DNA of 17,685 bases from an uncultured archaeon (GTDB lineage Archaea; Asgardarchaeota; Thorarchaeia; Thorarchaeales; Thorarchaeaceae): NCBI GenBank assembly GCA_964458565.1, contig CAYWJO010000061.1:1-17685 (forward strand). The letters are read 5' to 3'. The notes beneath the pieces are model-generated. The model did not search any database. It was not told the DNA's origin and worked only from the letters and a program-made list of their open reading frames with translations. Below, one piece after another: positions 8,373 to 17,685 of the stretch. Within the stretch, counting starts at the first letter, position 1; every line of letters starts with the position of its first letter. The position numbers and the translations under genes are program-made.

Positions 8373-9278
8373 TTGGACAAAAAACTCAAGGTTCTAGAAT
8401 TCATGGTGTTAAAATCAGGTGGAGTACCTGTGTTCCATTATTCGACCCAAGGAACTGAGAAACTAGATGAGCTTCTCTCAGGATTTCTCTCAGCTATAAC
8501 AAGTTTCGCTACAGAATTTGGAGAGAAGTCAGTGCAGAGTCTGACATTTGAGGGGTCAGAACTCCTATATGAAGAATTACCTGATAATACACTATTCATT
8601 TTTCTCGTTGAAACTGGTGCATCGAAAAAGATACTGAGAACTATCTTGAGAGAACTTGCTACAAGATTCATGAAACGGTATGAAAGCGAGATCAAAATGG
8701 ATGTACCTATAAAAGAACTATTCATGAGTTTTGAAACCGAGGTAAGAGAGGTCTTTACTTATTACGAAGAGATTCTCTATATTACATCTAGTCTTAGTTC
8801 ATTTGTTGTCCCGAGTATTCGTCGAGATGTTTTAAGAGAGTTAAATGAAAAAGAAGGATTCATCGATGCTTTCCATCGAGATTATGGTGCAGTGGGAACA
8901 AGAATATTGGATAGTATTGATGGGAAGAAATCTATCTACGAAATAAGTGGAAAGATAGGTCTGCTTGAAGAAGATACATCAGAGATAATTGAGTATCTCA
9001 GTATCTCCGGAGTGATTGAAGTTTCGAAGATGTGTCCCCAAATTGGAACGAATGATACACGATTTGATGCATATCTTGATCTCATTGGATTACCACGAAA
9101 AGATTACCAGTTGCTCCAAAGGGCGAGGTCATTCTGTACAGGTGAAAAGACTGTTGCTGAAATTGCGGATCGATTAAGTGTAACTGCTGAGAGGCTTTAT
9201 GAGGTTCTGACTAAGTTAGGCGATTCTGTCAATTGGAAACTTGTCAAAGTATCGGGATTACCACAACGAATAATCTAA
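8373..9278 (+). CDS. Longin-domain protein with two C-terminal winged-helix domains
   Basis: Asgard-type longin signature VLKSGGVPVFHY...LLSGFLSAITSFATE...F..RY. Winged-helix-like segments IDGKKSIYEIS...YLSISGVI and CTGEKTVAEIA. TTG start with GAGGAG SD. Confidence 0.75.
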   Translation: MDKKLKVLEFMVLKSGGVPVFHYSTQGTEKLDELLSGFLSAITSFATEFGEKSVQSLTFEGSELLYEELPDNTLFIFLVETGASKKILRTILRELATRFMKRYESEIKMDVPIKELFMSFETEVREVFTYYEEILYITSSLSSFVVPSIRRDVLRELNEKEGFIDAFHRDYGAVGTRILDSIDGKKSIYEISGKIGLLEEDTSEIIEYLSISGVIEVSKMCPQIGTNDTRFDAYLDLIGLPRKDYQLLQRARSFCTGEKTVAEIADRLSVTAERLYEVLTKLGDSVNWKLVKVSGLPQRII

Positions 9279-9337
9279 TCTAAATCTGCGAAGGTATAAG
9301 AGGTTACTAACAGCTATGGTATAAGGAGGAACCTGCT

Positions 9338-10636
9338 ATGGTTAAGGAAATCATTATTCTCAGAGACTCTGGCATTCCTCTATTTCATTACAGTGTGGGG
9401 GGAGAGAAAAAGCTTGACGAATTAGTCGCAGGTTTCCTTTCTGCTGTAGGGTTCTTTGCAGAACAAGTTGGTGAATCCAAGATCAAAGTGATATCGTTTG
9501 CCAACAGTAAATTCGTGTGGGAAAAGACTGGAGACCTATACTTCATCGCATTGGTTTCTGATGATGATAGTTCTGAAATCTACAGGGTTATCCTTAGGAC
9601 ATTATCAGACCAATTCGTAAGCACATATTATTCTGAATTGCGAAAGGATGAACCGCTCCTGAAAAATTTCAGACCCTTTACAGATACAGTAGAATTAACT
9701 CTTCAGAAATTTGACGGTATCCCTGGACTTGCACGGAGATACAAGACAGTTCTTCTTCCTGTCGATGAATTAAGGAAATTGAAGGATGGTGTTGCAGAAG
9801 TCGAAAAGCAGTCTGTCGTCTTTCGGGCAGCACTCGTCACAAATGATGGATATATAGTGGTCTCGAATTTCAGAGCTTATGAACTAGAAGGCATCCTCGA
9901 TATCTTGGTGATATTTGGTAATGATGAGAATATTCAGAAAGAAAGCATGATAGCTGTACATACCAGCCTGGATCCACGAACACAGTACTTTCTCATGCGT
10001 GTTGATGGTTTCGGAGTTGCTGTATTTGTTGTTAAAATAGGGCATGAACTTGAAGGTTATGCACAGAAAGTAGCGGGATTTCTTAGTGTTGTCCATACCA
10101 TAGATTTTACGGATATGCGAAAGATTGAACCTAAGCAAGATCCAACAGGATTCGATTTTTACGAATTCGATATTGTAACTCTAACAAAATCCAAGAATGA
10201 AACCTTAGAAGAATTAAAGGGACACCTGGTTACTGCTCCAGAATCAATCCGAGGGGACATTGAAACTGCAGTTCGTGCCATCAGTAGGAATATTACAATC
10301 GATGAGCTGAAAGAGAAGACAGGCCAAACTCGTGAAACAATCAGTGAAGTGCTAGCATATCTTATCAGCGCAGGTATCGCTGAGGTCAATATGATTTTTC
10401 CTGTATTGGAGGAACGAGATGAAAGATTCTCTGCGTATTTAGAGGTAGTTGGACTTCCTAAACGAGAGTATGACATCATTAACACAATATGGAAATTTTG
10501 CAACGGTAGTTATTCTGTTGGTGAAATCGCTGAAATCAGTGGGACACCGCCAGGTAAAATCATCGAAGTCATACGAAAACTTGGCAAGTATGTAAAATGG
10601 GAGAACCAGCGTGTTTTACTTGAAATCCGTCGATAG
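9338..10636 (+). CDS. Longin + roadblock-like + two winged-helix domain protein (paralogue of the upstream gene)
   Basis: IILRDSGIPLFHY...LVAGFLSAVGFFAE longin. AALVTNDGYIVVSN roadblock-like segment. C-terminus homologous to 8373-9278 (DERFSAYLEVVGLPKREY vs DTRFDAYLDLIGLPRKDY). AAGGAGGA SD. Confidence 0.75.
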   Translation: MVKEIIILRDSGIPLFHYSVGGEKKLDELVAGFLSAVGFFAEQVGESKIKVISFANSKFVWEKTGDLYFIALVSDDDSSEIYRVILRTLSDQFVSTYYSELRKDEPLLKNFRPFTDTVELTLQKFDGIPGLARRYKTVLLPVDELRKLKDGVAEVEKQSVVFRAALVTNDGYIVVSNFRAYELEGILDILVIFGNDENIQKESMIAVHTSLDPRTQYFLMRVDGFGVAVFVVKIGHELEGYAQKVAGFLSVVHTIDFTDMRKIEPKQDPTGFDFYEFDIVTLTKSKNETLEELKGHLVTAPESIRGDIETAVRAISRNITIDELKEKTGQTRETISEVLAYLISAGIAEVNMIFPVLEERDERFSAYLEVVGLPKREYDIINTIWKFCNGSYSVGEIAEISGTPPGKIIEVIRKLGKYVKWENQRVLLEIRR

Positions 10637-10759
10637 TACGGATCAACTGCAAGATGCATGGAAGTTGTAACCGCGACTGAGAGTATCGTGATTATCAAAA
10701 ATACTTCAGACACATTGGCACCCTCATGTCTTGGTAATTTGTAGTTCAATAAATGTCTT

Positions 10760-10791
10760 ATTCAGGAAATAGATTAGGGATATTCCTGAAT
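10760..10791. terminator. Inverted repeat (9-bp stem, 14-nt loop) between convergent genes
   Basis: ATTCAGGAA-N14-TTCCTGAAT, immediately downstream of the stop of the 10794 gene. Confidence 0.4.
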
Positions 10792-10793
10792 CA

Positions 10794-11111
10794 TCAAGAT
10801 GTTGTGTCAAAAAAGGACCTCTGATTTAGAACATATACTGTTGAAATAAAAGCGTAAATCACTACTACTAGAATAATAAGCTGGCCCCAATTGAATTCTG
10901 GATTAATAGCAAGAGCTATTATTTGGAGTACCACACAAATTGAAGGGATTCCTAAACCAATGATATATCTTCTTAATCTAGATAGAGTGAAATCAGCTGA
11001 TTGCGCGTCAAGAATCATTTTCTTAAGTATGTACGCATATAGAATAAAAATGACTCCTCCCAAAGCTTGAAATAAAAATGCTGAAATCACAATTTCTATC
11101 ATTCGCTGCAT
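10794..11111 (-). CDS. Small 3-TM membrane protein (105 aa), candidate immunity/cognate partner of the orphan tip
   Basis: Three hydrophobic helices with a basic loop after TM1. ATG at 11111 preceded by GGGTGAG SD. AT-rich. Lies directly downstream of the orphan tip. Confidence 0.65.
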   Translation of the reverse strand: MQRMIEIVISAFLFQALGGVIFILYAYILKKMILDAQSADFTLSRLRRYIIGLGIPSICVVLQIIALAINPEFNWGQLIILVVVIYAFISTVYVLNQRSFFDTTS

Positions 11112-11147
11112 AGATTTCTCACCCAATTTTTACATAATGAATTATAG

Positions 11148-11165
11148 ATGATAATTGTTTATCAT
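11148..11165. promoter_or_regulatory. Palindrome ATGATAA-N4-TTATCAT, possible operator
   Basis: Perfect 7-bp inverted repeat 37-54 nt upstream of the 11111 ATG. Confidence 0.3.
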
Positions 11166-11183
11166 ACGTTGCCAAACACATCA

Positions 11184-12017
11184 TCACCCATCTAACCAAA
11201 TCCTTGCAATTATTATTAACGCAATTCCAATCCCTAGAATGACAATATTTGCCCATAATGCGAATGCTAGTACTTTAGCCAATGGTGTCAATAAAGGTAC
11301 TGCTTGAGCAATGGATTCTAAGACTCCAATAGACATTCCTGCATTACCAAAAGCATTTATGATACCAAAACCAATAGCCGCTGTTAGCCACATAAGACCA
11401 ATATCTAATAGATAACGTCCTGCATCAGTTCTTTGCCATTCACCAATATTTACCATATGACTAGCCAAAATTGCAGGCATTGCTATAGCCCATAAGGCTT
11501 GAGTTGTTAATGCAAAAGCAGCTGAAATTAAGATTATAGGATTTGGGTTGCATTTTGCAGCCCATTCTAGTGTTGCAGCAGCTACAGTAATGCCTATTAA
11601 TAATATGGGAGAAATTATGGTATCTATATTCCAAGCAATCCAATCTTCAGCTTCGCCTTTGGCACCTAGAACACTTGCGTCACCTTCAACACTACATTCA
11701 CTATACTCAGTTATTCCCAATAAATTCTTTTTATAATGTGTATCAACTACCAAAGAAGTATTGGAGTATTGTATTTCATGCTCAATTACTACGTTAAGCA
11801 AGGGCCACCAACCAGTCCAATAAGTTGTTATTGAAAGCATCGCATCACTGAGATAGGAATCAGCAGAGTCAAAATCGTCATCAGTTGGTTTCCCAGTCCC
11901 ATCGAAGGAGTCATCAGGGGGAGGCTCCTGCTCCGTGGTAGTCTGGTCAGCATCCGACTGTGGTCCCTCGTTGCCCTCCTCGTCCACTGCCGAGACCCGG
12001 TAACTGTACGTGGTCTC
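11184..12017 (-). pseudogene. Orphan (start-less) alternative C-terminal module of the 1275-aa protein: end of FN3 + WxGWWPLL linker domain + hydrophobic multi-helix tip
   Basis: The open frame begins mid-FN3 (ETTYSYRVSAVDEEGNEG, identical to aa 1001-1018 of the 12451-16278 product). The ORF-track start at 11987 is an internal Val GTG. Shares FDGT, WxGWWPLL, KNLLG and DA..[FY]LL...L....AA.G with the main gene tip. Confidence 0.8.
11965..12017. repeat. 53-bp direct repeat, copy 2 (FN3-coding, GC-rich)
   Basis: ccctcgttgccctcctcgtccactgcCgaGacccggtaactgtacgtggtctc, 51/53 identical to 13226-13278. Confidence 0.95.
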
Positions 12018-12020
12018 TAA

Positions 12021-12401
12021 CTACAAATCAAGTTCAATCTCATTCTTGGATTTAAAATACCTGTGCTCTCGTAATTCTAAATATAGCCATAGATACATGA
12101 ATTTCAGTCCAATGACCAGATACAAGATGTAATATGGTGCGATCACAATTGTGATAGTATCAATTACTAGATTGATTACAATTATGATCCCTATGAAATG
12201 AAACCGTTCTCTCCTATTGTTTGCCATTCGTTTTGCTATTTGCTCCTTTCGGGATACTCTTTCATTAGTAATCATCGGAATACGGAGCGACATTCTAATT
12301 ATATTCCATTGAATATTGAATATATATAACCACAACATCTGGAGTCCAATGCCTATAATCCATCCAATATTACTTAGTATATCATTAATAATATCCATCA
12401 T
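12021..12401 (-). CDS. Small 3-TM membrane protein (~126 aa), candidate immunity/cognate partner of the full-length protein
   Basis: MMDIINDILSNIGWIIGIGLQ..., three TM segments with an Arg/Lys-rich loop. The ATG at 12401 avoids the 62-nt overlap of the longer ORF call. Very AT-rich. Confidence 0.65.
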   Translation of the reverse strand: MMDIINDILSNIGWIIGIGLQMLWLYIFNIQWNIIRMSLRIPMITNERVSRKEQIAKRMANNRRERFHFIGIIIVINLVIDTITIVIAPYYILYLVIGLKFMYLWLYLELREHRYFKSKNEIELDL

Positions 12402-12418
12402 TGTATCCCAACTATAGA

Positions 12419-12428
12419 ATTTATAAAA
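12419..12428 (-). promoter_or_regulatory. Candidate archaeal TATA box for the 12401 gene
   Basis: TTTTATAAAT on the minus strand 18-27 nt upstream of the ATG, preceded by the purine-rich ATAAGGAA (BRE-like). Confidence 0.35.
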
Positions 12429-12450
12429 TTCCTTATTATCTATTCCTCCC

Positions 12451-15400
12451 CTAGAATGACATAAGCAGGTGTACAACTCCAATAGATAGGATTGCAGCAC
12501 CGATTGCGGCAACTACCAGAAAAGCTACCATGGTTGGTTTCATCCAATCAAGAAATCCCTTTACAGCTACATTATCAACAATCTCTATTGGTCCGTAATC
12601 TGGAAATGTATTTTTCATCTGGCTCTTATTCATACCCCAAGCCGCCATGAAATAAACTAATGAACACTCGAGAAGGAAAATGAATGCATCAAAATGGGTG
12701 AATGCTCCTGACTCGACTCTTTCTTCTGCAAAAGTCACTGGAACCCACCATGCATATGCTGCGACAACAGCGAGTGCGACAATTCCAGCGGCTAATGCTA
12801 ATGGTGCTAATGCTGCTGCAGATTTGTAAGCTACTTCTACTGCATTCCCAAGGATAGCTATGGCTGTCAGAATACCTGCAAGAGGTAGTGCATTTTCGAT
12901 AAGGAATGCAATAATTGCAGGAGCTCCTTCCCAGAAAGATCCATCACCACTCATAGAAACATCCTGGTCCTCAGTAAAACCAAGTAAGTTCTTTGCGATA
13001 TGGAAATTCAAAGTGATATCAACTATGCCATAAGAGATTGGAATTGAGTAGGCAACGTGTAGTAAAGGCCACCATCCTGACCACCAAATGGACAATGTTT
13101 CAAAAGCTTCAATTAGATCAAAATCAGCAGTATAAAGTGCTGATTTAGAGGGATTAAATGTCCCATCGAAATCTTCATCCACAGGTTCAGCCTGAGTGGT
13201 GGCGGAGTCGGGGTCAGAGAGGTCACCCTCGTTGCCCTCCTCGTCCACTGCTGACACCCGGTAACTGTACGTGGTCTCCGGTTCCAGGCCGCTGTCTGTG
13301 AAGGTCGTCGTGGGATGGTCCACCTCACCCACCTTGATACCATCCCGGTAGATGCAGTAGTGGTCCATGTCTAGCTCTTCGATCCCAGTCCACGCGACCT
13401 CTATCTCATCATGAGACAGTGTGGTGGCAGTAACGTCCTCCACTTCATCAGGTGGGTTCCCAAATGACCCTGTTGAGAGACCTACTGAGGACGACTGGTC
13501 CCCCTCATTTCCAGACCGATCTACAGCAGCCACAGCATAGGTGTAACTCGTGTACTCTTCAAGGGCGGTATCAGTGTAGGAGGTTCCTTGAATCTCTGCG
13601 ATCTTTGTGAATGCTCCATCTCCTACCTTTCTATATACACTATAGCGAGTGACATCGGGTTCTGGATTTGCATTCCAGGTGAGGTCTATCTGTTCGGACC
13701 CTGAAGGTTGATCTGCAGCTAGACCTGTTGCCTGTTCAGGTGGATAGATATCATCAGGCTTCTGCATGTTGAGCTTGCACTCCACGTTGATGTTGTGGAT
13801 TCGCATATCAACCAAGTTATAGTACTTGTACCTGTACCCAAGGAGAACTACATACTTTACCACTCTGGTATAGTTGTACGAGACTCCAAGGTCAGCTTGT
13901 CCAACACCCTCAATGTCGCCTTTTATCATTCCTTCGTCAAACCAGAGCTTCGCAGTCTTTGTGAAACCAGAGTTGTAGATATAACCTGACGAATAGGAGC
14001 ATGTGGAACTCCCCTCAGGGTAGAAGTAGATCCTCATGACTGCCTTTTCAGCTCCTACTTGTGCATCACCAATATATACCAACATGATGATGTTCTTGTT
14101 CTCATCGAAGAGAGCAACATACATCTTACCCATGGTATTACTGCTTTGAACCATCTGAATATTGACAGAGAATTCTGTCAGCTGATATAATCGGAATGGT
14201 CTTGATAAAACGTGAACGAAGTCCGGTCCGTGCCATCCAGTATAATCAATAGGGATCTGATCCGGTGTCATATAGCTCTCACCAGAAGGTACAACGAACT
14301 CCCCATCTGATGATGTGCCATATCCAAAATCGAGATCTTTGTTGAATCCGTCCATATCATTGCAGTTGTCATTAAATACCGTGTATTCAGACCTGCAAAA
14401 GCTGACTCGAACATTATCTATCTCCACATGGTGCTGATAGCTTGTAGGATTTCGATAACTCTGTATAACTACATATTTGATAATTCGGTTCTGGTCAACT
14501 GTTATAGGAGTAAAGAATACTTGTTCACTCTTTGTTGGGACATCTCCGGATAATCCTTTCAATCGATCGAAGCGTATTTGCACTATGCCAGAGTAATCTC
14601 CGTAAATATCATCTGAAACTAGCTCTTCATAGCTACCACTCGCCTTGTAGTATCTCGCAACAAAACGCTCTCTCTGATAGGGTGAGCTTGAAGAATAAGT
14701 CCAAGAATCGTAAACAAACAAGCTTGCCATGATGTCTTTATTCTCATCATATAGTGAAACACAAGTATAGGTCCCTCTCCGTCCATCATTATTGTGTTCT
14801 ATTGTAAGATTCACTGAGAATGAGCCTAGATCACGCAGCTTGAAGTATGATGGAAGTGTGCGGACAAATGAAGGCCCTCTCCATCCGCTAGGACTTGAAG
14901 GAATAGATACAGGATAAGTTACATTTCCGTCACAATATAAATCGCCAGTGTTCTGTGCCGTACAGCTTGGAAATACAGGCCATGATGCATCATAATCATA
15001 CTCTACTTTTACACATGGGTCAGTCCATAAACCTCCAGACCTACCAGGATTTCGACCTGTTACAGGTTCCTGCCAGACTCCATCTACCTTTTGTTTTGAA
15101 ACATAGAGCCCATGTATGACAGTTTCATTGAGAGCAATTGAGTCGACTTGATCAAGATCACTCCCACTGGCTGTCACCTCTACTGTTGGTGAGTCACCAT
15201 ATGATATGGAATAGTCAAATCCAACTGTTCCGTAGTATGTTCCACCAGCAAACTGAGTTGGCCCGTCTTCCCAATGCCCTCCTGTTCCGGCGGCTGCCAT
15301 GACATATATCATGCTAAATGAGTCTGGTGGAGGTGGTGGTGGAGGTGGATTCTCAGGAGGTTCAATATCCTCAATCCATGTGGACTCGTAGTACCAGTTC

Positions 15401-16278
15401 ATGGTATAATTGACAGAGGTTGTAATTTGGGATGCTAGTACAGTTTGCCATTCACCATCATCCCAATATGACCCGTAGTAGTATATCAACATATAGCTTA
15501 AATCAGAAGGTAAAAGACTGAAATCGTAAGTGCCATAAACAGTGTAATTTGAAAAACGGATGACCATGTGTTCACTTGTGTATGTATCTGAATACGTGTC
15601 ATCAATGTATTCAATCTCATCGAGAATAATCTGTGAGAAATCCATGATATGAACACTTGTTCCAGTCTGTACGAGTTCCTTCGCCTTGGTAAGTTCCTCT
15701 ATTCTATATTCTTCAACATAATCAGTGTGAAGTCCAACCGCTAGCATTGCGGTGGAGGTAATCTCAACATTAGTGACTTCAGCAGGTCTCGCTCCAATAA
15801 CGGTATAAAGCTTTTTCCCTGAATCATCATCTCCATACTTTACTATCTCCCTACTACAACATGCCATGAACAGGTGTAAGCTTACTGGTGATTCTTCCAC
15901 TATTCCTGCCATTGTCTTCCAGGATGTAATATGCTTGCCTGTGACAATTCCAAATGGTCCGCCATGAGATGCGTAGATGACTATATCCTCATCCAATGTC
16001 AGAGCAACTCGTGGATTATTGGTCCGAATGACCCTGATACGATCAGGAAGAAAAATATCATCTGAAATGAAGGTAGAAAATCTTTCAATTAAATCATTGA
16101 CTGCCCAATCTGTGTCTGAATCACCTGACAACTGAAGGATAGCAATATCAGGACCTTCATTCACAATATCAGCCGTCCATGCAGTAGAAGCATAGAGCTG
16201 CATTCCAAGAATTACAGTAATTGCGATAGTACAAGATAGAAGAAACTGTTTCCTCCTAAGGAGATTAATCCTACACAT
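12451..16278 (-). CDS. Large secreted multidomain protein: caspase/gingipain-like peptidase domain, poly-Pro, 2 beta-sandwich repeats, 2 FN3 domains, hydrophobic multi-helix C-terminal tip (polymorphic toxin/recognition protein candidate)
   Basis: Signal peptide (RRKQFLLSCTIAITVILG...AWTA). IVIYASHGG / LHLFMACCS dyad motifs. PPENPPPPPPPP. GWRGPSF/GWHGPDF repeats 216 aa apart. Two FN3 domains (LTW...Y.VYR...YTD..L...T.Y.Y.V.AVD..GNEG). About 4 C-terminal hydrophobic helices. Confidence 0.8.
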   Translation of the reverse strand: MCRINLLRRKQFLLSCTIAITVILGMQLYASTAWTADIVNEGPDIAILQLSGDSDTDWAVNDLIERFSTFISDDIFLPDRIRVIRTNNPRVALTLDEDIVIYASHGGPFGIVTGKHITSWKTMAGIVEESPVSLHLFMACCSREIVKYGDDDSGKKLYTVIGARPAEVTNVEITSTAMLAVGLHTDYVEEYRIEELTKAKELVQTGTSVHIMDFSQIILDEIEYIDDTYSDTYTSEHMVIRFSNYTVYGTYDFSLLPSDLSYMLIYYYGSYWDDGEWQTVLASQITTSVNYTMNWYYESTWIEDIEPPENPPPPPPPPDSFSMIYVMAAAGTGGHWEDGPTQFAGGTYYGTVGFDYSISYGDSPTVEVTASGSDLDQVDSIALNETVIHGLYVSKQKVDGVWQEPVTGRNPGRSGGLWTDPCVKVEYDYDASWPVFPSCTAQNTGDLYCDGNVTYPVSIPSSPSGWRGPSFVRTLPSYFKLRDLGSFSVNLTIEHNNDGRRGTYTCVSLYDENKDIMASLFVYDSWTYSSSSPYQRERFVARYYKASGSYEELVSDDIYGDYSGIVQIRFDRLKGLSGDVPTKSEQVFFTPITVDQNRIIKYVVIQSYRNPTSYQHHVEIDNVRVSFCRSEYTVFNDNCNDMDGFNKDLDFGYGTSSDGEFVVPSGESYMTPDQIPIDYTGWHGPDFVHVLSRPFRLYQLTEFSVNIQMVQSSNTMGKMYVALFDENKNIIMLVYIGDAQVGAEKAVMRIYFYPEGSSTCSYSSGYIYNSGFTKTAKLWFDEGMIKGDIEGVGQADLGVSYNYTRVVKYVVLLGYRYKYYNLVDMRIHNINVECKLNMQKPDDIYPPEQATGLAADQPSGSEQIDLTWNANPEPDVTRYSVYRKVGDGAFTKIAEIQGTSYTDTALEEYTSYTYAVAAVDRSGNEGDQSSSVGLSTGSFGNPPDEVEDVTATTLSHDEIEVAWTGIEELDMDHYCIYRDGIKVGEVDHPTTTFTDSGLEPETTYSYRVSAVDEEGNEGDLSDPDSATTQAEPVDEDFDGTFNPSKSALYTADFDLIEAFETLSIWWSGWWPLLHVAYSIPISYGIVDITLNFHIAKNLLGFTEDQDVSMSGDGSFWEGAPAIIAFLIENALPLAGILTAIAILGNAVEVAYKSAAALAPLALAAGIVALAVVAAYAWWVPVTFAEERVESGAFTHFDAFIFLLECSLVYFMAAWGMNKSQMKNTFPDYGPIEIVDNVAVKGFLDWMKPTMVAFLVVAAIGAAILSIGVVHLLMSF
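13226..13278. repeat. 53-bp direct repeat, copy 1 (within second FN3 domain)
   Basis: ccctcgttgccctcctcgtccactgcTgaCacccggtaactgtacgtggtctc. Differs from 11965-12017 at two synonymous positions. Confidence 0.95.
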
Positions 16279-16383
16279 GCGAACGCCTCTTTACACAATA
16301 TGATTGGTACTCCATCCCCAATCATAGCCAAGAATTTTATATAATTCGCACTATATAAAATTAAAGGATGATTGAAGAATTAG

Positions 16384-16404
16384 GTGCATTTTGACTAAAT
16401 GCAC
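16384..16404. promoter_or_regulatory. Inverted repeat GTGCATTT-N5-AAATGCAC, possible operator upstream of the large gene
   Basis: Perfect 8-bp inverted repeat ~105-125 nt upstream of the 16278 start, near TATA-like TTTTATATAG (minus strand, 16351-16360). Confidence 0.35.
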
Positions 16405-16568
16405 GCAGATAATATTTTAATGGGTTTCTGTAGCTGTATCTCTATTTTTCGTTTGATTCTGCTTTAGAAAAGTGATTGCATGGAAGATTGTAACACTAAG
16501 AATCCATATTTACTTAACATTTGGCCACTTAATGTAGTAACATCAAATGAGTGAAGAAACCATCTCTT

Positions 16569-16697
16569 ATGAATAGAATTAGAGATGTGAAAGAAACCTC
16601 CTACATGGACAGTGGCCTGCAGGCGGAAACCACCTGTAGTTACTGGGCCTCAATAGTAAACAACAATGAAGTATGTGAGCAATCCCTGACTATCTGA
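16569..16697 (+). pseudogene. Degenerate FN3 C-terminal-half relic (inverted relative to the large gene)
   Basis: Translates as MNRIRDVKETSYMDSGLQAETTCSYWASIVNNNE..., versus TTFTDSGLEPETTYSYRVSAVDEEGNE in FN3 #2. 16608-16661 matches the FN3 #2 coding strand at 39/54 nt. Confidence 0.7.
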
Positions 16698-16798
16698 TGA
16701 ATTCAAGCAAGTCCTATTATAAATGCGTGTACTCTAAATACGTATGTTTCGAATAAAAGAGTATATCAAGAAATCAGCTTTTTGGGTTGTGTGGTTGA

Positions 16799-16957
16799 AT
16801 GAAGTCCATCAAGGAACAGGTGCGAGAGCGAAGAGACAGGGAGCAGGTCCTCACCGCTATCCGCGCGAGGGCTCTTACAGGACTGGACACACTCAGAATA
16901 GGACTCATGTTATCAAATACTGCGTTGAAGGTGGCAGGGGATAAAAAGCATGAATGA
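16799..16957 (+). CDS. Small basic helical protein (52 aa), putative antitoxin/partner of the downstream nucleotidyltransferase
   Basis: MKSIKEQVRERRDREQVLTAIRARALTGLDTLRIGLMLSNTALKVAGDKKHE*. Overlaps the next start by 8 nt (ATGAATGA). Not in the ORF track because it is under 60 aa. Confidence 0.6.
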   Translation: MKSIKEQVRERRDREQVLTAIRARALTGLDTLRIGLMLSNTALKVAGDKKHE

Positions 16958-17504
16958 CATTGAAGAGGTCTTGAGATTGGTCTGTAATTTTCTTAACGAA
17001 CAGAACATGAGATATGTCATTGTTGGCGGCATTGCAGTGATGTTTCATGGAGTTCCTCGAACCACAGTGGATATCGATATCATCTTGGACATGAGTGATG
17101 CGGAGCTCAAGGAATTTACTGGGTTCCTCAAGAGAGAAAAGTTCAATGTTGATTATGATACTATGAGAGAATTGATACATGATGGAAGTCATAGTACTGT
17201 TTTTCTCCATGAGGGTCTGATCCGTTTAGACCTTCAAGGTGTAAATTCAGAGTTCGATCAGGAAACACTGGACAGAGCTATTGAGGTAAATTATTCTGAT
17301 TGTAACCTTAGAATAGGATCTGTTGAAGATACCTTGATCAACAAGCTCTACTTTCAGGGAGAACAGGATCTGAGAGATGCACTTGGGATTTACGCGCGTC
17401 ATAAGAGAGAATTAGATGAAGTGTACATTGCGGAGATGTGTAATGTTTTGGGAATACTCAAATCTTGGGTGAGCTTTAAAGAGAAATATGATGATATTGA
17501 ATGA
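16950..17504 (+). CDS. DNA pol beta-superfamily nucleotidyltransferase (DUF6036/AbiEii-like)
   Basis: YVIVGGIAVMFHGVPRTTVDIDI (GG.A...G..R.T.D.D) and C-terminal K.....EQDLRD motifs. Confidence 0.85.
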   Translation: MNDIEEVLRLVCNFLNEQNMRYVIVGGIAVMFHGVPRTTVDIDIILDMSDAELKEFTGFLKREKFNVDYDTMRELIHDGSHSTVFLHEGLIRLDLQGVNSEFDQETLDRAIEVNYSDCNLRIGSVEDTLINKLYFQGEQDLRDALGIYARHKRELDEVYIAEMCNVLGILKSWVSFKEKYDDIE

Positions 17505-17685
17505 TTCTGAATTGTGATCGACCCGTTTCTTTATCAAATTCCGCAATCATGAGAGGATGGTTCATTCCTCAAGACATATCTGACCTGACACCACCTCAGG
17601 TTCAAGGACCAGTCGCCACCACGGTCTCCTACGAGGAGATCCGTGTCAACTGGACAGCGAGCTCATCCAGCCACGACCACTACAA
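17501..17685 (+). CDS. Partial ORF running off the window, encoding the start of an FN3 domain
   Basis: The ATG at 17501 overlaps the NTase stop (ATGA), with an alternative ATG at 17549. Reads ...SDLTPPQVQGPVATTVSYEEIRVNWTASSSSHDHY, versus GNPPDEVEDVTATTLSHDEIEVAWTGIEELDMDHY in FN3 #2. GC-rich. Confidence 0.65.
   Translation, partial: MILNCDRPVSLSNSAIMRGWFIPQDISDLTPPQVQGPVATTVSYEEIRVNWTASSSSHDHY

Follow-up and report, generated by a model that had tools for sequence, protein, structure and literature searches.

Among the described systems with exchangeable gene ends, the polymorphic toxin systems of the CDI and Rhs type are among the closest to the locus reported here. Orphan cdiA-CT/cdiI and rhs-CT/rhsI modules are known in these systems (Zhang et al. 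2012, PMC3482391; Ruhe et al. 2016, PMC4927057), and such modules are also the subject of Koskiniemi et al. (2014, PMC3967940), as cited in PMC4927057. In archaea, polymorphic toxin systems of the classical kind are seldom found (PMC3482391). The present locus lies in a 17,685-nt contig of a Thorarchaeota genome, the whole of which was analysed and is called the window. It has the same gene layout as CDI/Rhs: a large exported protein is divided at a sharp motif (VENN or PxxxxDPxGL in CDI/Rhs, DGT here) into a constant body and a variable C-terminal domain (the tip), a small cognate gene (the partner) is located immediately downstream of the tip, and tandem 5'-truncated C-terminal fragments share homology with the main gene (the handle), so that their fusion by homologous recombination would cost the resident immunity gene. 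On the other hand, the host is an Asgard archaeon, and no T5, T6, T7 or PVC delivery genes were found; the only delivery feature seen is a Sec-type N-terminal signal or anchor helix, and the neighbouring genes are unrelated. The tips, four-helix domains embedded in the membrane, fall into one homologous family and a second one, in contrast to the diverse soluble enzymes of CDI/Rhs and their unrelated toxin folds. The partners are predicted three-helix membrane proteins, the array is partly inverted, and no integrase or transposase stands between the cassettes.

The S-layer genes of Campylobacter fetus (sapA), pilE/pilS and vlsE have one expression site and promoterless partial copies with a common conserved segment. 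In systems of the sapA type, oppositely oriented copies can move behind the one promoter and the constant part through RecA-type inversion or gene conversion, and the cassettes are kept; antigens are varied to escape host immunity, and the cassettes carry no partner gene. One expression site and startless partial copies with a conserved segment are likewise found here, but each cassette brings a co-varying membrane partner, and switching within a clone is putative. In the Gin/G segment of phage Mu and the R64 shufflon, alternative C-terminal gene ends are switched by a site-specific recombinase at short crossover sites. Alternative ends in opposite orientation, joinable in frame to a constant 5' part, are also present at our locus. 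However, no recombinase family was recognised in any ORF of the window or of the adjoining contig region C44:1-9629, on which ground a shufflon worked by a site-specific recombinase or invertase was rejected, and the repeats are stretches of coding homology of 50–640 nt.

The VARTIG loci of the Thermococcales encode a large Ig-fold surface protein with a C-terminal part made hypervariable by recombination, followed by variable downstream genes; their organisation has been likened to polymorphic toxin systems, their function is unknown, and no counterparts were found in other archaea (Makarova et al. 2021, PMC8416519). The present locus is similarly an archaeal, lineage-specific locus with a variable C-terminal part and variable downstream genes. 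No sequence relationship to VARTIG was found. In VARTIG it is the C-terminal Ig domain itself that varies, whereas here the Ig-like FN3 domain is the conserved handle and a membrane domain varies.

Layout of the locus and the repeat pair

Two 53-nt segments of the window are identical at 51 positions, with two mismatches, as found in agreement by a repeat finder, MAFFT and a mismatch search. No match to the pair was obtained by chance in 200 dinucleotide shuffles of the window. The features of the locus are as follows.

12451..16278, minus strand: main gene, 1275 aa
13465..13743, minus strand: FN3 domain 1 with a PPEQ lead-in
13210..13458, minus strand: FN3 domain 2 (about aa 941-1023), the GC-rich handle region
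13226..13278, minus strand: main-gene copy of the handle at the end of FN3 domain 2, comprising codons 1001-1018 (ETTYSY...GNEG)
13159..13225, minus strand: acidic linker closing with an invariant (F/Y)DGT; DGT at 13167-13159
12454..13158, minus strand: tip A (aa 1041-1275)
12021..12401, minus strand: partner A, small protein with three predicted membrane helices, of no known family
11184..12020, minus strand: orphan cassette B, made up of 18 codons from FN3, a linker of the E/F type and tip B
11965..12017, minus strand: copy of the handle at the 5' end of orphan cassette B, where main-gene homology begins
10794..11126, minus strand: partner B, small protein with three predicted membrane helices
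16593..16673, plus strand: decayed remnant of an FN3 C-terminus, opposite to the main gene and first element of the inverted array
17501..17685, plus strand: start of cassette C (whole FN3 and tip C), which runs off the contig and continues at C44:3-764

In the main protein, a signal or anchor helix at aa 12-30 precedes a conserved alpha/beta domain of the N-terminal part, which has invariant HGG and AC motifs; two central beta-rich repeats follow, and the C-terminal part is made up of the two FN3 domains, the linker and tip A. Tip A begins with an outer helix and a four-strand sheet bearing a W-x-G-W/P-W-P motif, and four membrane helices follow. The start of partner A is most likely ATG 12401 and not further upstream, which is a small correction. 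Orphan cassette B has no ATG, and gene callers start it at GTG 11987 (267 aa).

Read on the minus strand, both copies of the 53-mer give ETTYSYRVSAVDEEGNEG, and the two differences, GTG/GTC (Val) and TCA/TCG (Ser), are synonymous. The starts of the copies are 1261 nt apart. The main-gene copy begins at codon 1001 of the 1275-aa frame (16278..12451), and the orphan copy begins 3 nt past the stop codon of partner A (TAG, 12023-12021). A 277-codon frame opens at the orphan copy and runs to 11187, with its stop at 11186-11184. The predicted fusion is therefore 1000 + 277 = 1277 aa, followed by partner B. An earlier note on this DNA had claimed the 51/53 identity with synonymous differences, the 1261-bp spacing, an in-frame product of 1277 instead of 1275 aa and an orphan that keeps its own partner gene; both the geometry and the arithmetic hold. 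The strong divergence of the adjacent tips that it described was also observed, since identity drops immediately beyond the 53-mer (76% for the 96-nt family, and 28–37% in protein for the tips). The 53-base repeat is probably a shared short handle by which a spare, silent gene end, together with its own partner gene, could be joined in frame to the large surface-protein gene. Its longest perfect stretches are only 26 and 23 nt, which makes it a poor recombination substrate compared with the longer handles described below.

Further cassettes in this genome and in relatives

A BLASTN search with the 53-mer, which the earlier note had proposed, yielded more cassettes, at C44:4070-4166 (88%) and C44:6061-6156 (83%). 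The 3' end of the window joins contig C44; a 353-aa protein found on three JGI contigs consists of the frame at the window end, 39 aa, and the frame at the start of C44. This contig adds four FN3-handle cassettes, C, D, E and the truncated F, all inverted relative to the main gene. From tblastn and motif searches, the genome inventory came to five tips plus one truncated handle; the genome has one full-length gene and five more handle-bearing fragments lacking the body. There are at least six FN3-type handles in this genome, and therefore the locus looks like a swap-the-tip system, which is known from bacterial toxin genes and not described for these Thor-type Asgard archaea. The 53-bp repeat is the shortest handle of a cassette system and no isolated pair.

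In each cassette, a 5'-truncated handle is followed by a linker that closes with the invariant DGT, by a membrane tip of four helices and by a partner gene for a small three-helix membrane protein. The partners give no cross-hits to each other. The handle has 18 codons in orphan B and 50–90 codons in cassettes D, E, F and C, and the handles of the inverted cassettes are longer (up to 244 nt, at 86%). The orphan handles begin at differing 5' points, as expected of orphan modules. Every orphan tip and partner frame is intact, no stop codon interrupts the orphan tip frames of 226–250 codons in this AT-rich DNA, and orphan B was called as an identical 267-aa gene on two independent JGI contigs. 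A nucleotidyltransferase gene sits within the cassette array.

At least six further cassettes are present in a co-occurring relative, and a co-occurring strain carries alternative tips on near-identical handles. Both FN3 domains of the main gene together share 94% nucleotide identity with a two-FN3 orphan cassette of that strain (L017). The earlier note had allowed for a repeat with no other copies or alternative tips; the copies on C44 and the tips of the co-occurring strain provide both. Thorarchaeota relatives carry arrays of up to eight cassettes, including one genome (G007) with eight tandem tips. In their direct arrays, handles of 52–424 nt with 80–88% identity end at DGT, and one related species has an inverted upstream array resembling this locus. 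As a separate observation, four metagenome contigs overlap cyclically, which suggests a cassette-only circle of about 13 kb; the cyclic path, L017-L020-L019 (roughly 13.2 kb), may instead be a tandem array.

Sequence divergence of handles and tips

The 54-nt handle block was 91–96% identical among A, B, E, H and P20, which come from two genomes, and the tips carried on this handle variant were only 20–28% identical in protein. Across cassettes, the handles showed 77–98% nucleotide identity versus 20–28% amino acid identity for the tips, and all handle homologies stopped at the linker that closes with the (F/Y)DGT motif. Between cassettes, homology can end at the FN3 motif, at the DGT motif (13160) or anywhere between the two, so that a crossover would not be confined to the 53-mer as had been proposed. 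The near identity of the pair had been attributed to recent recombination or homogenisation focused on this segment. The orphan B copy is, however, equally close to cassette E and to P20 of the other genome (96%) as to the main gene (94%). Judged from the sequences, the near identity is that of a handle variant common across the population, not a result of local homogenisation.

In the handle, 15 of 18 codons were identical; in the tip, this held for 24 of 64 positions with the same residue. Three nucleotide differences were observed in the handle, as compared with 12.6 expected under genome codon usage (P = 7e-5). The GC3 value of FN3 domain 2 was 0.70–0.80, as against 0.345 for the genome. 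A GC3 peak on the handle was found in four species, one of which has a non-FN3 handle, and the tips had the lowest GC3. Part of the nucleotide conservation of the handle could stem from GC-biased codon usage peculiar to this FN3. One handle variant on diverged tips, the conservation of synonymous sites and the GC3 peak in four species together point to repeated recombination; the recombination itself and its frequency are what we infer from these patterns. They offer a measurable signature, in which the GC3 peak and the conserved synonymous sites fall exactly on the handle.

Proposed routes of exchange and likely roles of the tips

We consider it probable that the 53-bp repeat acts as a homology handle at the 5' end of a C-terminal cassette, a silent orphan, in a polymorphic surface-protein system whose tips are exchanged by recombination. 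Such a system would be found in this family of Thorarchaeota. The constant body, about 1000 aa long, would comprise the signal, the N-terminal domain, both beta-rich repeats and both FN3 domains. After the linker with the invariant DGT would come an exchangeable tip, embedded in the membrane and encoded next to the gene of its small membrane partner. In the spare tip-plus-partner cassettes, a piece of the constant part that is cut short at its 5' side is kept, its length ranging between 18 codons and two whole FN3 domains, and homologous recombination in these pieces would place another tip and partner behind the constant body. With the direct repeat 11965/13226, the product would be a 1261-bp deletion fusing aa 1-1000 to tip B. 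In the reverse reaction, a handle-tip-partner circle or fragment would integrate, which would explain how tip A displaced tip B. The inverted cassettes C–E would instead give an inversion or a gene conversion.

Of the swap proposed in the earlier note, the geometric possibility stands and the special near identity of the pair does not; in addition, the deletion would remove partner A, which would be costly if this is an immunity-type gene, as argued for CDI (PMC4927057). Since most cassettes are inverted and have longer handles, a route by inversion or gene conversion is no less likely than the deletion. The search for a deletion junction or circle was made with read-derived Logan contigs from four runs (X1, X2, X6 and X8) over 9000-17685 at a depth of 5–8x. 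These contigs are broken in the FN3 region (13150-13340) and drop rare variants; X6 and X8 do not cover 9290-11900, and such a gap is no evidence of absence. Neither a 1261-bp deletion joint nor a circle appeared, and no inversion junction could be established, in the Logan contigs of the four runs, in which rare variants are undetectable. With the same limit, a single opposite-strand joint, 13724/17618, was present in three runs. No near-identical full-length protein with another tip was found in a set of 5.8 billion proteins. From these results, switching is still something that we infer. Loose ends at 13178 were considered as alternative tips of the main gene and rejected, since they match cassettes G and K of the co-occurring strain (L018/L019). 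P0004 was likewise rejected as a main-gene fragment with a swapped tip, because it is a complete two-FN3 orphan.

The repeat may instead be a fossil, the scar of an insertion of tip A and partner A that pushed tip B downstream, with no present role and an identity due to protein constraint on the FN3 F-G strands and local codon bias. Decay is indeed visible at the locus, where cassette F ends 12 codons past DGT and an FN3 remnant lies at 16593-16673; in addition, handle lengths vary and the nucleotidyltransferase gene interrupts the array. This is one of two models proposed for CDI orphans (PMC4927057), and it agrees with the lack of junction reads in the Logan contigs, where rare ones are undetectable. 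We regard it as unlikely, because the orphan tip frames are all open despite the AT-rich DNA, the conservation of synonymous sites in the handle exceeds expectation, one handle variant is found on five tips across two genomes, and the GC3 peak is repeated across species. It seems more doubtful still that orphan B is a gene in its own right, expressed independently and encoding a small membrane protein paralogous to the tip, with the FN3 fragment as a leftover 5' end having no role in recombination. Gene callers in three assemblies do give the 267-aa gene from GTG 11987, its frame is intact, and many database relatives are stand-alone proteins of 267–470 aa. However, it lacks an ATG as well as a signal peptide for its outer part of roughly 100 aa, its frame begins right where homology begins, 3 nt past the preceding stop, and the stand-alone relatives all bear 5'-truncated pieces of the constant part in varied lengths, which is unexpected for an autonomous family; expression of this kind would also be compatible with recombination. 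A chimeric assembly, in which the repeat misjoined contigs of two strains or loci and partner A and orphan B are not truly adjacent, is very improbable: Logan unitigs do break within the orphan copy (11982/11988) and depth rises in the FN3 bins by pile-up of paralogues from co-occurring strains, but a difference-free 1164-nt contig spans partner A, the junction and 33 nt of the orphan copy including both copy-specific bases, the two copies share no 31-mer, so that collapse at k = 31 is impossible, depth is similar on either side, and orphan B has the same GTG start on two JGI contigs.

Under the preferred reading, that of a cassette system with exchangeable tips, a tip and its partner would most likely act in the membrane as a pair, either toxin/immunity-like or of an identity type, and the tip is a possible pore-former. 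No toxin, immunity or secretion family was recognised among tips and partners, for which Pfam gave no match; the tip gave no PDB fold match with Foldseek and VIA-align and no match in the ESM Atlas, and a related-locus search with tip B gave none. For the N-terminal domain, a PDB sequence search had no match and the AF2 model was poor (pLDDT 55.6), matching only generic alpha/beta folds. The idea of a caspase-like domain was dropped, as this model was too poor to bear on the question.

A wider interpretation is more speculative, and we hold it only tentatively. The locus may be a lineage-specific system of self/non-self recognition or contact antagonism, in which tip/partner pairs are shuffled onto the surface protein by homologous recombination at GC-enriched handles. 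Reversible inversion, between the divergent silent array and the expressed gene, and cassette exchange between co-occurring strains would be included, and the cassette-only circle of about 13 kb may take part. Should the tip/partner pairs work through membrane contact in kin recognition or in killing, the locus would bear on self/other discrimination in protrusion-forming cells that live in consortia. It provides a concrete case in Thorarchaeota on which a programmed or recurrent exchange of C-terminal cassettes can be tested, with a new membrane tip domain and partner family. For annotation, the 'hypothetical' membrane proteins of 267–470 aa in Thorarchaeota would be gene ends, not genes.

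The 53-bp repeat and its reading frame

An earlier note had proposed that a nearly identical 53-bp pair could exchange the C-terminal end of a 1275-aa surface-protein gene (the main gene). The two copies are present at 11965-12017 (copy A) and 13226-13278 (copy B) and differ at two bases, both synonymous, so that on the minus strand both encode an identical 18-residue segment closing an FN3 domain. No comparable match appeared in shuffles of the window. The feature is real and was correctly measured. Copy B starts at codon 1001 of the main gene (16278..12451). Copy A starts 3 nt past the stop codon of partner A (12401..12021), a small membrane-protein gene, and begins a frame of 277 codons, orphan B. 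Downstream of this frame lies partner B, which also encodes a small membrane protein. Two observations support the placement of orphan B next to partner A: a 1164-nt contig crosses the junction with no differences, and the same 267-aa orphan B gene call occurs on two JGI contigs.

The arithmetic of the proposed crossover, a 1261-bp deletion and a 1277-aa product, holds. The deletion joint was absent from the Logan contigs of four runs; these contigs are short, at 5-8x depth, and broken in the FN3 region, so its absence counts only weakly against the deletion. A near-identical full-length protein with another tip (the exchangeable C-terminal membrane domain) was not found in a large protein set. 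The swap at this pair is plausible but unproven. Of the routes available in the locus, deletion is the least favourable for this pair, since the copies offer only short runs of perfect identity (26 and 23 nt) and the product would lack partner A.

Two other arrangements were observed in the runs. An opposite-strand joint, 13724/17618, occurs in contigs of three runs (X1, X2 and X6; depth 5.7-10.9, shorter side 37 nt), and could have arisen by inversion or belong to a cassette of a co-occurring strain. Two X2 contigs step back by 140 nt (13317 to 13178) and 179 nt (13354 to 13176); in these, at 13176-13354, a handle (the short coding segment common to the main gene and the spare cassettes) and its linker run directly into another partial handle with no tip, as in the truncated cassette F.

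Cassettes in this genome and its relatives

The check for more cassettes suggested earlier was productive: a BLASTN-type comparison of the copy-A region with the whole genome gave two further copies on contig C44, and tblastn with a motif scan gave five tips and one truncated handle in total. The window is the whole contig C61, and an FN3 frame opens at its 3' end. A 353-aa protein from a public collection, found on three JGI contigs, consists of this frame, 39 further residues and the frame at the start of C44; therefore, the two contigs abut. Cassette C is split between them with about 39 codons absent, so the break in the assembly falls within the repeated FN3 segment. The joined locus contains:

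minus strand, in this order: main gene, partner A, orphan B, partner B
plus strand, diverging from the main gene start: decayed FN3 remnant (16593-16673), nucleotidyltransferase gene, cassettes C, D, E and truncated F
17501-17685 plus C44:1-764: cassette C, an FN3-plus-tip gene

Small membrane-protein genes follow each of C, D, E and truncated F. From their plus-strand placement, most spare cassettes are inverted relative to the main gene. The DUF6036/AbiEii-like nucleotidyltransferase gene (16950-17504, plus strand), between the FN3 remnant and cassette C, is accompanied by a 66-aa frame at 16744-16944 and looks like a toxin-antitoxin-type insert within the array. Adjoining the locus, two neighbouring genes at 8373-10636 pair longin or roadblock-like with winged-helix domains (weak Pfam matches, Fuz_longin_1 and TrmB).

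All members found of the N-terminal domain family come from MAGs labelled Thorarchaeota, 'archaeon' or Promethearchaeota. In a set of 301 genomes from the phylum, tips were detected only in the window's own family, and matches elsewhere are to FN3 alone. Related loci are arranged as follows:

L100: four direct orphans, with handles of 180-424 nt (83-88%)
L103: direct orphans, with handles of 52-108 nt
L101: inverted upstream array, with a 53-nt scrap of handle behind the partner gene, an arrangement closely resembling that of this genome
G007:C39: eight tips in tandem
L017-L020, metagenome contigs of the co-occurring strain: at least six cassettes

The 53-bp repeat is one small part of a larger Asgard cassette system that is apparently undescribed. 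The JGI salt-marsh contigs L017, L020, L018 and L019 overlap end to end at 99.8-100%, giving a closed path of about 13.2 kb that contains only cassettes G, P20, J, K, H and I with their partners; the path may represent a circular element or a tandem duplication, or be a sample-pooling artefact. In the main genes of the window (12454-16278), L100, L101 and L103, GC3 is 0.8-0.88 on the handle segment and 0.17-0.30 in the tip.

Probable recombination at the handles

A, B, E, H and P20, from two genomes, share a 54-nt block at 91-96% identity, while their tips are only 20-28% identical. The near-identity is not special to the 53-bp pair, since orphan B resembles the main gene (94%) no more closely than it does E or P20 (96%). 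Over 640 nt, cassette H matches the two FN3 domains of the main gene at 94% identity. The segments are mosaic: the main handle clusters with D, E and H upstream, the main linker with D and C, and the linker of B with F and E. Identical codons number 15/18 in the handle against 24/64 in the tip, counted there at same-residue positions, and 3 nucleotide differences were seen in the handle against 12.6 predicted from genome codon usage (P = 7e-5).

Genome-wide GC3 is 0.345; the value reaches 0.70-0.80 in FN3 domain 2 and 0.60-0.81 in every handle, and is 0.30 in tip A. The GC3 maximum lies just before the tip in four species, in one of which the central domain, not FN3, serves as handle. The peak is consistent with GC-biased repair at a hot spot of recombination, and may be a mark of archaeal GC-biased gene conversion; foreign origin of the handle segment is the alternative.

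The handles begin at different 5' points, leaving 18 codons (B, and K of a relative), half an FN3 domain, a whole one or two; the longest comprise two FN3 domains and the last residues of the central domain. Every handle homology stops at DGT, near 13160. No recombinase lies near the locus, which makes general homologous recombination the likely means of exchange.

This layout is that of the orphan C-terminal/immunity modules of bacterial polymorphic toxin systems (PMC3482391), for which both 'fossil of displacement' and 'silent reserve' readings have been proposed, and in which fusion by homologous recombination costs the resident immunity gene unless duplication comes first (PMC4927057). All frames of the orphan tips are open. 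This, together with the decoupling of handle from tip, the mosaic structure, the synonymous sites and the GC3 composition, favours reading the spare cassettes as a probable active reserve.

Tips and partners

When 21 tips are aligned, a proline and the D-G-T prove invariant and a W-x-G-W/P-W-P motif is seen, after which the sequence turns hydrophobic. The tip model (mean pLDDT 79.6) comprises a helix, a sheet of four strands and a set of four long membrane helices, and the partners have three predicted membrane helices. Neither tip nor partner has a match in Pfam, PDB or ESM Atlas. Two inferred roles fit co-varying membrane proteins in exchangeable cassettes: tip and partner may be a toxin acting on the membrane together with its membrane-bound immunity protein, or they may be an identity pair. 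An Asp-specific cut would be compatible with the (F/Y)D-GT boundary.

The tips are not all of one family, since relatives carry a second, on main genes and orphans, which has no W-x-G-W/P-W-P motif and terminates in LVTC(I/V)YY(I/C):

L094 (G019:C12), 10947-14432
L096 (G015:C221)

Some cassettes have a longer or extra partner (L093 1267-1692 and 5384-5842; L020 884-1660; L019 1284-1850), with a conserved C-terminal helical tail of no known family (like ...SxRxDEVGxxA...) past the membrane helices. In the main protein, aa 102-142 (15860-15970), for which a caspase-like peptidase has been suggested and whose structural model was poor, contain YxSHGGP and HLFxAC motifs, invariant in six orthologues, in a beta-alpha-beta setting.
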